NCBI GenBank assembly: GCA_951406725.2
Contig: OX597828.1
Span: forward strand, 17,112,001-17,176,000
DNA length: 64,000 bases
From: Octopus vulgaris
Lineage: Eukaryota
Reading direction: 5' to 3'
The notes under the pieces were generated by a model. It saw only the letters and a list, made by a program, of their open reading frames with translations. It was not told the DNA's origin and ran no database searches. Position numbers and translations under genes: made by a program. Shown here one piece after another: positions 46,060 to 48,255 of the stretch (position 1 is the stretch's first letter; each line of letters opens with the position of its first letter).

Positions 46060-46632
46060 GAAAAGGCCTGATCAAAAAGTATCCGGACTGTTGACATAGT
46101 AACGGAGCAATAATTACGCAAAGTAAAGCCGCTGGGCACAGATTGAATTTGAACTCTGTTGTGCATGCGCGTTATGTTTTAACGTCCTAGCACGCTTCCG
46201 CTGTTTCCAATAGTGCTTGGAAGGAAGATATGTAGCGTGTGATTGTTGCATTGACTATGACAGAGAGAGTTGTCATACCGATATCTGCTCAGAGGCCCAC
46301 GCAAAGTTGCAGAAAGTGTATGGCGAGGAGTGTAGTAGCCGCAGAGAAGTGTACGAGAGTTTCCGACTTTTCCAAGATGGCCTAAAAGATGTCGATACTG
46401 ACAAATTTTCTGAGAGATCGGCAACCAGCAGAACTGAGAAAACAATGCGGATGTACGTGCAACTGTGAGGGGAAATCGTCGAATCGCAATCAAAGGATGT
46501 GCAGATTAATTACGATTCAATTCAGTCTCTCATCACTGAAGATTTGTGTATGAAACGTGTGTAAGCCAAATTTGTGCCAAAACTGCTTTCAGTTGACCAA
46601 AAGGACACTTGGGGTTCAGTTCTACAAGACCT
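46060..46632 (+). mobile_element. Mariner 5' fragment (left TIR + HTH + WVPHEL-like motif)
   Basis: gcctgatcaaaaagtatccggact TIR; EAHAKLQKVYGEECSSRREVYE..RLFQDG; AKFVPKLLSVDQK. Confidence 0.88.
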
Positions 46633-46777: not shown

Positions 46778-46864
<87 letters not shown>

Positions 46865-46880
46865 ATATATGTATATATAT

Positions 46881-46942
<62 letters not shown>

Positions 46943-46980
46943 CATATATACGTATATTTTAATCTTCGGATTTTTTAATA
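46752..46980. repeat. About 27-bp inverted repeat enclosing a TA microsatellite
   Basis: tattaaaaaatccgaagattaaaaat ... atttttaatcttcggattttttaata. Confidence 0.8.
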
Positions 46981-47000
46981 ATGATATATATATATCTATT

Positions 47001-47039
<39 letters not shown>

Positions 47040-47244
47040 TTAAATTTATTAAGTCACTCTAAAGGAGATTACGACACCGTTACTGGAAATTAATAGTTAT
47101 CGCCATATTTATATGGCAGTCTTATAAATATAAGACCAAAGCTGTCGCTGATTAGCTCCAAGAGGCCACCGCCTCAAGCTAGCAATTTGACACACAACCT
47201 GCGTCCATTATAAACCTACGAATAGGGGAGGTCAGCCGCTTCAT

Positions 47245-47320
47245 TCTGCCAGTCAGACAGCTGCAGACATGTTTCAGGGTATTTGCCCTTTATCAATGCA
47301 ACGTAGTCAGACCCAGCAGG
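47245..47320 (-). ncRNA. Full-length type I hammerhead ribozyme, U3-A8 variant (copy 1)
   Basis: CUGCUGGGUC-UGACUAC-GUUGCA-UUGAUAA-AGGG-CAAAUA-CCCU-GAA-AC-AU-GU-C^UGCAGC-UGUCU-GAC-UGGCAG; cut between 47266 and 47265. Confidence 0.85.
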
Positions 47321-47624
47321 TGTCGCTACTGACTGTCCCTGTTCGAAGAATCTAATTACCTAGTTTCAGTGGAATACATCCATTTGTTTTCAATAATAGA
47401 AATATTAAAATTACTAAGTCTCTCTAAAGGAGATTACGACAGCGTTACTGGAAATTAATAGTTATCGCCATACTTATATGGCAGTCATATAAATATAAGA
47501 TTAAATCTGTCGCTGATTAGCTCCAAGAGGCCACCGCCTCAAGCTAGCTATTTGACACACAACCTGCGTCCATTATAAACCTTCGAACAGGGGAGGTCAG
47601 CCGCTTCATCCTGCCAGTCAGACA

Positions 47625-47666
47625 GCTGCAGACATGTTTCAGGGTATTTGCCCTTTATCAATGCAG
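47625..47666 (-). ncRNA. Hammerhead ribozyme copy 2 (core intact, distal stem I lost at the inversion junction)
   Basis: CUGCA-UUGAUAA-AGGG-CAAAUA-CCCU-GAAAC-AU-GUC^UGCAG; 365 nt from copy 1. Confidence 0.8.
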
Positions 47667-47869
47667 GAGCTAATCAGCGACAGCTTTTGTCTTATATTTA
47701 TAAGACTGCCATATAAGTATGGCGATAACTATTAATTTCCAGGAACGCTGTCGTAATCCCCTTTAGAGAGACTTAGTAATTTTAATATTTCTATTATTGA
47801 AAACAAGTGGATGTATTCCACCGAAACTAGGTAAAAAGGTTCTTCGAACAGGGACATTCAGTAGTGACA

Positions 47870-47945
47870 CCTGCTGAGTCTGACTACGCTGCATTGATAA
47901 AGGGAAAATACCATGAAACATGCCTGCAGCTGTCTAACTGGCAGG
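47870..47945 (+). ncRNA. Hammerhead ribozyme copy 3, probably inactivated
   Basis: GCUGCA-UUGAUAA-AGGG-AAAAUA-CCAU-GAAAC-AU-GCC-UGCAGC: stem II mismatch and GUC changed to GCC. Confidence 0.7.
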
Positions 47946-48096
47946 ATGAAGCGGCTGGCCTCCCCTGTTCGAAGGTTTATAATGGACGCAGGTTGTGTGT
48001 CAAATATCTAGCTTGAGGCGGTGGCCTCTTGGAGCTAATCAGCGACAGCTTTAGTCTTATATTTATAAGACTGCCATATAAGTATGGCGGTAACTA

Positions 48097-48136
<40 letters not shown>

Positions 48137-48255
48137 TACGCACATATATACATATATATATGAGTGTGTGTGCGTGTGTGTATAGAGGGAGTGAGAGAGG
48201 ATGAGAGAGACGGATAGATAGATCAGCCGATAGATAAATAGATAGATAGGTGCGT

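Follow-up and report, generated by a model that had tools for sequence, protein, structure and literature searches.

The three hammerhead motifs found in the window, by which the whole 64,000-nt stretch of Octopus vulgaris DNA analysed here is meant, are all part of one insertion of a 365-bp non-coding unit, and this unit belongs to a family dispersed throughout the genome. By its sequence features, the motif is a real full-length type I hammerhead, likely to cut itself, in which the tertiary pair U3-A8 takes the place of C3-G8. This swap is shared across the subfamily to which the window copies belong. The 3-8 pair is, at the same time, not strictly conserved in the family, because lineages with a C3·A8 mismatch have been amplified; since these lineages also transposed, U3-A8 is regarded as a tolerated, context-dependent swap that is loosely kept by selection.

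The insertion consists of two arms that meet head to head at 47665/47666 and lie tail-out in (TA)n (Table 1). The core reads UUGAUAA in all three hammerhead copies, as had been described before. The loop II sequence CAAAUA, which the earlier note had assigned to every copy, was found in copies 1 and 2 but not in copy 3. GAAA and the GUC triplet accompany the core in copies 1 and 2, and the GCC triplet of copy 3 corresponds to U16.1 changed to C; this copy is likely to be inactive. When folded as a circle, the monomer had a z-score of -3.3 relative to 60 shuffles. No frame of at least 90 aa was observed across the insertion, and neither the unit nor the adjacent DNA of the window contains an ORF with a reverse transcriptase (RT) and GIY-YIG. 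Decayed transposase-like frames, which may be mariner-like by their resemblance, lie immediately to the left of the insertion (window 46179-46600). Two consecutive complete hammerheads, the rule used in a 2026 preprint for an 'active' element, do not occur at the window locus and are present at other loci, such as L002, L014 and L072.

Table 1. Features of the insertion and of the adjoining microsatellites, in positions of the window.
Feature	Position	Strand	Remarks
(TA)n microsatellite adjoining arm 1	46781..47033	.	
Arm 1	47031..47665	-	635 nt, ~1.7 times the 365-bp monomer; (TA)n at its 3' end
Full monomer	47036..47400	-	365 bp, non-coding, 41% GC
Hammerhead copy 1, type I, full length	47245..47320	-	only intact copy of the three
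Core box UUGAUAA, copy 1	47290..47296	-	U3 = 47296, A8 = 47291
Stem I, copy 1	47302-47297 with 47265-47260	-	6 bp, one private U·G wobble
Loop UAC, copy 1	47305-47303	-	unpaired U1.7 at 47259
Distal helix, copy 1	47308-47306 with 47258-47256	-	3 bp
Stem II, copy 1	47276..47289	-	4 bp, with loop CAAAUA (47285-47280)
Palindromic stem III and C17, copy 1	47266..47272	-	ACAUGU (47272-47267), C17 (47266)
Hammerhead copy 2	47610..47665	-	core 47661-47655; ends at arm junction 47665; without 5' loop strand and distal helix
Arm 2, inverted	47666..48101	+	436 nt, ~1.2 times the monomer; its 3' terminus is the second of the two ends preferred in the family and lies in (TA)n
Hammerhead copy 3	47870..47945	+	core 47894-47900; loop II AAAAUA, stem II mismatch, GCC triplet
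(TA)n microsatellite adjoining arm 2	48100..48161	.	

Three helices surround the core and stem I is open-ended, which is the arrangement of a type I hammerhead, with helix III stable only as an intermolecular palindrome. The literal box CUGANGA is absent, UUGAUAA standing in its place. In copy 1, GAA separates stem II from ACAUGU, the monomer fold prediction gave pair probabilities of 0.84-1.0 for stems I and II, and the cut is predicted from the hammerhead consensus to fall between 47266 and 47265, after GUC. It had been proposed that stem I contains an internal loop UGACUAC/UGUCU; a better drawing of this region places UAC across from one U and, next to them, a 3-bp helix (GAC/GUC) in which every pair covaries. 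In the lowest-energy fold of the monomer, G5-A8 of the core pair with the UGUC that ends at C17 (window 47266-47294, minus strand). This pairing may represent an inactive alternative, strengthened by A8, that could keep monomers off. The expectation that searches for CUGANGA would miss such a core was borne out, and the Rfam scan of the window also returned no match at the gathering score. When E values up to 10 were allowed, the weak matches obtained were mostly microsatellite noise, and the top hammerhead was HH9, with 13.4 bits vs a gathering threshold of 52 and an E value of 8.2.

The whole genome (2.8 Gb in 227 contigs) was searched for related copies. Whole-monomer homology revealed U3-A8 in 39 of 39 core-spanning copies (best 30 loci of 40 scored among 2,732 candidates), and an exact pattern left open at positions 3 and 8 matched 94 times, with 91 U-A, two U·G, one C·A and no C-G. 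The subfamily consensus is therefore not CUGAUGA, as it would be if U3-A8 were the product of local decay of a canonical core. Although copy 3 is ordinarily decayed at three other positions, these counts refute such an origin, whose probability we regard as practically nil. A wider pattern with the loop CAANUA gave 1,005 genome matches against 0 for the reversed control, divided into 69 C-G, 47 C·A, 17 U·G and, by subtraction, 872 U-A. Loop II varies among subfamilies (CAACAA, CAAUGA, CGACUA and others), and since the CAANUA pattern missed subfamilies with other loops, loop II was relaxed for the replacement counts. In this way, 1,676 U3-A8, 699 C3-G8 and 132 C3·A8 matches were recovered, while all controls remained at 0; these counts cover three core classes, with U3·G8 left out, and as exact matches they are lower bounds. 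With at least 2,507 motif matches in the three classes, the family shows the dispersion and the high copy number of retrozymes.

A tree was built with 132 rows from 146 distinct motif matches, 14 having been dropped as short or uncovered, and it showed three starred clades, A, B and C, with bootstrap values that had not settled. Clade A has U3-A8 and comprises the window subfamily, at a median of 1.8% from its consensus, together with an older subfamily (7.1%). Clade B has C3-G8 and lies 6-7% from consensus; when its copies were retrieved by their flanks only, 19 of 22 had C-G. In clade C the core states are mixed among sequences that are about 1-8% apart, have common stems and a common palindrome, and differ at 3-8. 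Between clades, consensus rows agree at only 49-68%. It was also noticed that in subfamily B1, which has C3-G8 (for instance L037, L046, L051 and L058), the first position of the consensus stem II (10.1-11.1) is occupied by C opposed to A. L091 and similar rows are isolated hammerhead-like matches with unrelated flanks and other stem II sequences, and therefore indicate that further hammerhead families are present.

The earlier note had treated the three window copies as evidence of covariation. Being parts of one insertion, they are not independent, and the evidence lies in the other subfamilies, among which stems I and II do covary at a similarity of only 50-64%. The structure test used 59 of 108 eligible rows, 50 of them distinct, which were related rows, mostly pattern matches, pre-filtered for at least 70% flank identity to a subfamily. 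In this set, 92.2% of cells were paired vs 72.6% in shuffled sets (a value reached by 0 of 500) and 26-52% with slid partners. Changes on both sides were observed in 15 of 17 pairs, including all six proximal and three distal pairs of stem I and all four pairs of stem II, and the pairings of stems I and II are absent from the search pattern. For two of the five measures the observed value was not extreme: at least as many pairs with two-sided change were seen in 37 of 500 shuffles, and at least as many pair types in 443. At positions 3 and 8, the 50 distinct rows had U-A in 27 cases, C-G in 17, U·G in 2 and other states in 4.

The bases that would hold loops 1 and 2 together were also retained. 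Dufour et al. (PMC2632901) described IL1.U1, the extrahelical IL1.C8 and the 3' A of CAAAUA as the contact bases of the Schistosoma mansoni full-length hammerhead. As described there, that ribozyme has the same loop 2, CAAAUA, the same U directly past a 6-bp stem I on the substrate strand, and the UAC that closes the 5' side of the internal loop. In the octopus family, U1.7 was present without exception (59 of 59 aligned rows), and both the U and the C in the UAC loop were conserved to at least 90%, none of these bases being part of the search pattern; the 3' A of loop 2 is fixed by the pattern, yet it was kept in at least 38 of 39 copies found by homology. These counterparts (U1, the extrahelical pyrimidine and the 3' A of loop 2) are thus present, and the contact itself is putative. 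The likeness to Schistosoma drawn previously holds for these bases, which are kept across subfamilies, but not for the shape of the internal loop, which is UCCA:GUAC (4x4) in S. mansoni according to PMC2632901 and 1x3 followed by three covarying pairs here. The proposal that covariation and tertiary contacts indicate selection for catalysis was likewise sustained in part. Covariation at 3-8 is loose, since C3·A8 lineages amplified; selection is argued chiefly from stems I-III together with the contact bases, and not from the 3-8 pair.

Stem III consists of AC-NN-GU, which leaves no room for a loop, and its two central bases cannot pair within one strand. A perfect palindrome was counted by eye in 95 of the 100 matches listed first among the 1,005. 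Four palindromes were distinguished by their central pair among the 50 distinct rows (UA in 27, GC in 8, AU in 6, CG in 5, other in 4), and each of them defines subfamilies. Such covariation makes sense only if two units pair and therefore points to cleavage as a dimer, which has been described for Penelope and axolotl hammerheads (PMC4209133, PMC7229834, PMC6765202). On secondary structure alone, the swapped dimer was predicted to lie 5.2 kcal/mol below two monomers. Because stem III is palindromic, a feature missed by the earlier note, an assay of the monomer would probably underestimate the activity.

The footprint of the insertions matched the Penelope type, with a partial tandem, an adjacent inverted copy and a microsatellite target. 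Among loci chosen for long matches, head-to-head arms were found at 17 of 42 young A loci, 9 of 34 loci and 16 of 30 C loci. Of the young A arms, 36 of 61 were longer than one monomer. The 3' ends lay mostly in (TA)n and fell at two fixed places past the cut site, ~175 and ~235 nt in clade A and ~183 and ~225 nt in clade C. Penelope-like elements, according to Craig et al. (PMC8557442), target microsatellites and insert as partial tandems next to an inverted copy that is truncated at its 5' end; unlike these, the unit has no ORF and is non-autonomous. The 5' ends of the arms were not enriched at the cut site (1 of 61, 0 of 48 and 1 of 47, vs ~1.5 expected in each case), which fits a circular template, yet leaves no direct trace of cleavage. 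Moreover, 28 private variants, one of them at the window locus, were common to all units of an insertion vs 211 that were unshared, which suggests that each insertion derives from a single template, be it a circle or a homogeneous array. Several arms (in L005, L008, L010, L011, L024 and L026) have a common 5' end at monomer position 204-205, counted from the cut site. They thereby exceed a complete unit by ~30 nt, which resembles the tail of 30-40 bp in Penelope elements, and L010 and L011 have the identical junction on different chromosomes.

Elements with GIY-YIG were abundant in the genome (148 matches among 150 scored), and some Penelope elements have an intact 781-aa frame with RT and GIY-YIG. 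These elements also end in (TA)n, and a minimal hammerhead with UUGAUAA and ACAUGU was present in 18 of 30 GIY-YIG loci, 57-111 nt before (TA)n; three full-length Penelope copies carry it at both ends. A Penelope-like element is put forward as the candidate mobiliser of the repeat. Catalysis by a heterodimer of the repeat and Penelope hammerheads was considered and rejected, given that their stem I strands are not complementary. Several loci deserve mention in their own right. L178 (at 778 and 5565), L180 and L181 (G000:C16:20834500-20841500 and others) represent a young autonomous Penelope-like family with many full 781-aa frames and the minimal UUGAUAA/ACAUGU hammerhead at both ends, and L181 also has an upstream 479-aa frame without a Pfam match. 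In L061:930-1320 (G000:C1:71103298-71106328), an inverted clade C arm passes directly, without change of sense, into a fragment coding for GIY-YIG, and no corresponding Penelope sequence flanks it on the opposite side; either the template was switched or the unit was inserted at the border of an older fragment. In L186:1903-5902 (G000:C1:172141000-172148000) there are two inverted arms of another Penelope-like element with a 745-aa frame without a Pfam match, and a distant U3-A8 retrozyme lineage lies beside them (L186:100-800).

The shared core UUGAUAA and palindrome ACAUGU could suggest that the repeat is a detached terminal repeat (pLTR) of an autonomous Penelope-like element and no independent retrozyme, the more so as Xenopus retrozymes are related to pLTRs according to a preprint (bioRxiv 10.64898/2026.07.22.740005). 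However, no homology between the 365-bp repeat and Penelope terminal repeats was detected in 40 Penelope-bearing or candidate loci, whose ends could not be aligned beyond separate insertions. The Penelope hammerheads of this genome are minimal and devoid of the tertiary loops, no upstream Penelope frame in the same sense was seen in 147 family loci (frames of at least 150 aa scanned), and the units recur in tandem with a period of 350-365 bp. An origin as a detached pLTR is thus very unlikely.

The reading that we favour, and hold to be probable, is that multimeric transcripts of the repeat would be cut after GUC (47266) by paired hammerheads with U3-A8 cores, two ACAUGU palindromes pairing to build stem III of the dimer. 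The resulting monomers would circularise, and the RT/endonuclease of a Penelope-like element would copy the RNA at a cut in (TA)n, starting from both strands. Against this explanation, the amplification of the C3·A8 lineages indicates that spread does not strictly require Watson-Crick pairing at 3-8 in cis. In the same preprint on Xenopus, 8 of 9 predicted retrozyme dimers were reported to be uncleaved in vitro. Family-like pieces were found in contigs of 4 of 21 listed runs guessed to be RNA (three studies), contigs that cannot show strand, ends or level and were given no weight on either side.

The window subfamily has a Watson-Crick pair at 3-8, in the form of U3-A8, and C3·A8 sister subfamilies do not. 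A young C3·A8 subfamily accounts for 29 of the 47 C·A matches with the loop CAANUA, in 21 insertions (by eye), at 0.7% from consensus, and includes a tandem trimer. When this subfamily was searched by its flanks only, 29 copies were found, with 21 C·A and 8 C-G cores. A8 goes together with the loop CAANUA and G8 with CGA-type loops, with one exception among the 29 copies, and the C·A state is therefore inherited and not separate decay. On the sequence data, this young mismatch subfamily has spread. An older C3·A8 group, at ~10% divergence, comprised 26 of the 100 C·A matches listed first with the relaxed pattern (by eye). In this group, 18 loci and 2 U-A look-alikes share their flanks, and as the loci were picked for C·A, the group consensus is not proven by them. 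Its signature was found in 0 of the first 100 C-G rows and in 2 of the first 100 U-A rows listed, and this subfamily has probably spread as well.

The order in which these states arose was addressed by tree analysis. The best tree of clade C nests C3·A8 and C3-G8 inside U3-A8 (100/99), which would mean a path from U-A through C·A to C-G; AU tests did not reject alternative orders within the clade (p 0.26 and 0.28). A 56-row tree built after masking positions 3 and 8 required the state to change 7 times, in part through decay of single copies. A-to-I editing was also evaluated as a source or rescue of the core changes and found no support, as the variants shared within insertions included 4 A>G vs 3 T>C (p = 1.0; 28 variants, low power).

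The mismatch lineages raise the question of a relaxed or vestigial ribozyme, in which U3-A8 would be slow or dead, the Penelope machinery would copy uncut multimers, and the fold would be kept for recognition or stability. This reading would accommodate the amplification of C3·A8 (29 matches in 21 insertions, plus the older group), the opposed C·A with which stem II begins in subfamily B1 and the lack of 5'-end enrichment at the cut site. Naiad elements are also described as spreading without canonical hammerheads (PMC8557442), and a scan of a type III hammerhead revealed that only the G3-C8 swap rescued the core, other swaps being of low activity (PMC9901934). However, a Watson-Crick 3-8 pair prevails in most sampled subfamilies (27 U-A and 17 C-G among 50 rows), copies found without the core pattern have an intact consensus core, and the contact bases associated with fast cleavage have been kept over ~50% divergence. 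A vestigial ribozyme is thus considered distinctly improbable.

The same lineages could also be explained by complementation in trans, in which units with a mismatched core would be cut by the catalytic strand of a sibling subfamily with the same stem III palindrome and stem I; selection on the core would therefore act on a group of compatible subfamilies and not on each lineage. The young C3·A8 subfamily and its C3-G8 sister group, which are of similar age (0.7% and 1.3% divergence), have the same ACCGGU palindrome and both stem I strands in common, and in a double hammerhead, according to the dimer model (PMC4209133), the core of one unit cuts the strand of the other. This complementation is purely inferred, and the 6-bp palindrome and stem I must outcompete intramolecular folding. 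Moreover, it accounts for the C·A lineages, but it is superfluous for the U3-A8 copy in the window. We give it a low, though not negligible, probability. A more speculative extension, which we hold as tentatively, is that the family represents the crossing of a fitness valley by a catalytic tertiary pair, with mismatch lineages cut in trans by palindrome siblings and the four palindromes acting as compatibility types; on this view the ACAUGU palindrome, being the same as in the Penelope U3-A8 hammerhead, might also help the RNA to associate with its mobiliser. Dimeric cleavage of multimers by U3-A8 hammerheads, followed by mobilisation through a Penelope-like element, remains the preferred explanation for the insertion in the window.

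By its sequence, the element fits the metazoan non-LTR retrozymes at the family level. As described for coral, mussel (350-390 bp) and axolotl (Cervera and de la Pena 2020, PMC7229834; Li, Clavereau and Pollet 2026, bioRxiv 10.64898/2026.07.22.740005), it is a non-coding tandem unit, here of ~365 bp. Metazoan retrozymes of this kind also have less than 45% GC, one type I hammerhead per unit, thousands of motifs, a short palindromic helix III and Penelope-like elements in the same genome; with 365 bp, 41% GC and one type I hammerhead, the octopus unit lies within the usual ~170-400 nt and GC content of retrozyme units. In contrast to the elements described in these studies, the core is U3-A8 in most counted copies, the insertions are short and two-armed in (TA)n and not long arrays, and helix III has two pairs and a 2-nt centre without a tetraloop. 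None of the papers listed in literature searches, one of which was loose, concerned a cephalopod retrozyme or amplified C3·A8 cores, a result on which the further species lists in the supplements of PMC7229834 and PMC4209133 may bear.

The swap itself had been published in 2011 and 2014. Perreault et al. (2011, PMC3088659) described the covariation from C3-G8 to U3-A8 as natural and active in vitro, and Cervera and de la Pena (2014, PMC4209133) reported ~1,300 minimal U3-A8 hammerheads in the Cercyon Penelope-like elements of S. mansoni. The assumption that U3-A8 is a functional natural variant thus agrees with published work, and for the same reason it is not new in nature. The examples of Perreault et al. 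are scattered, whereas here U-A, C-G and C·A each define amplified subfamilies of a genome-wide family. Cercyon, as described in PMC4209133, has the same core swap, a palindromic 15.2-16.2/loop 3 region and a proposed dimer; its motifs are minimal and lie at the ends of a coding element, whereas the unit in the window is non-coding and its motif, of full length, has tertiary loops and stems of 6 and 4 bp. The spread of C3·A8 mismatch subfamilies is the point that goes beyond the earlier note.

These results have consequences for how such ribozymes are counted and studied. If ribozymes are counted by means of CUGANGA or Rfam, some seven out of every ten motifs in this family would be overlooked (1,808 of 2,507 in the three classes counted). 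The natural set provided by clade C allows it to be asked whether retrozyme mobility requires self-cleavage and whether dimers complement in trans, and the core-pair variants would allow testing how a catalytic pair evolves. If the palindromes do act as compatibility types, they would decide which retrozyme RNAs process each other.
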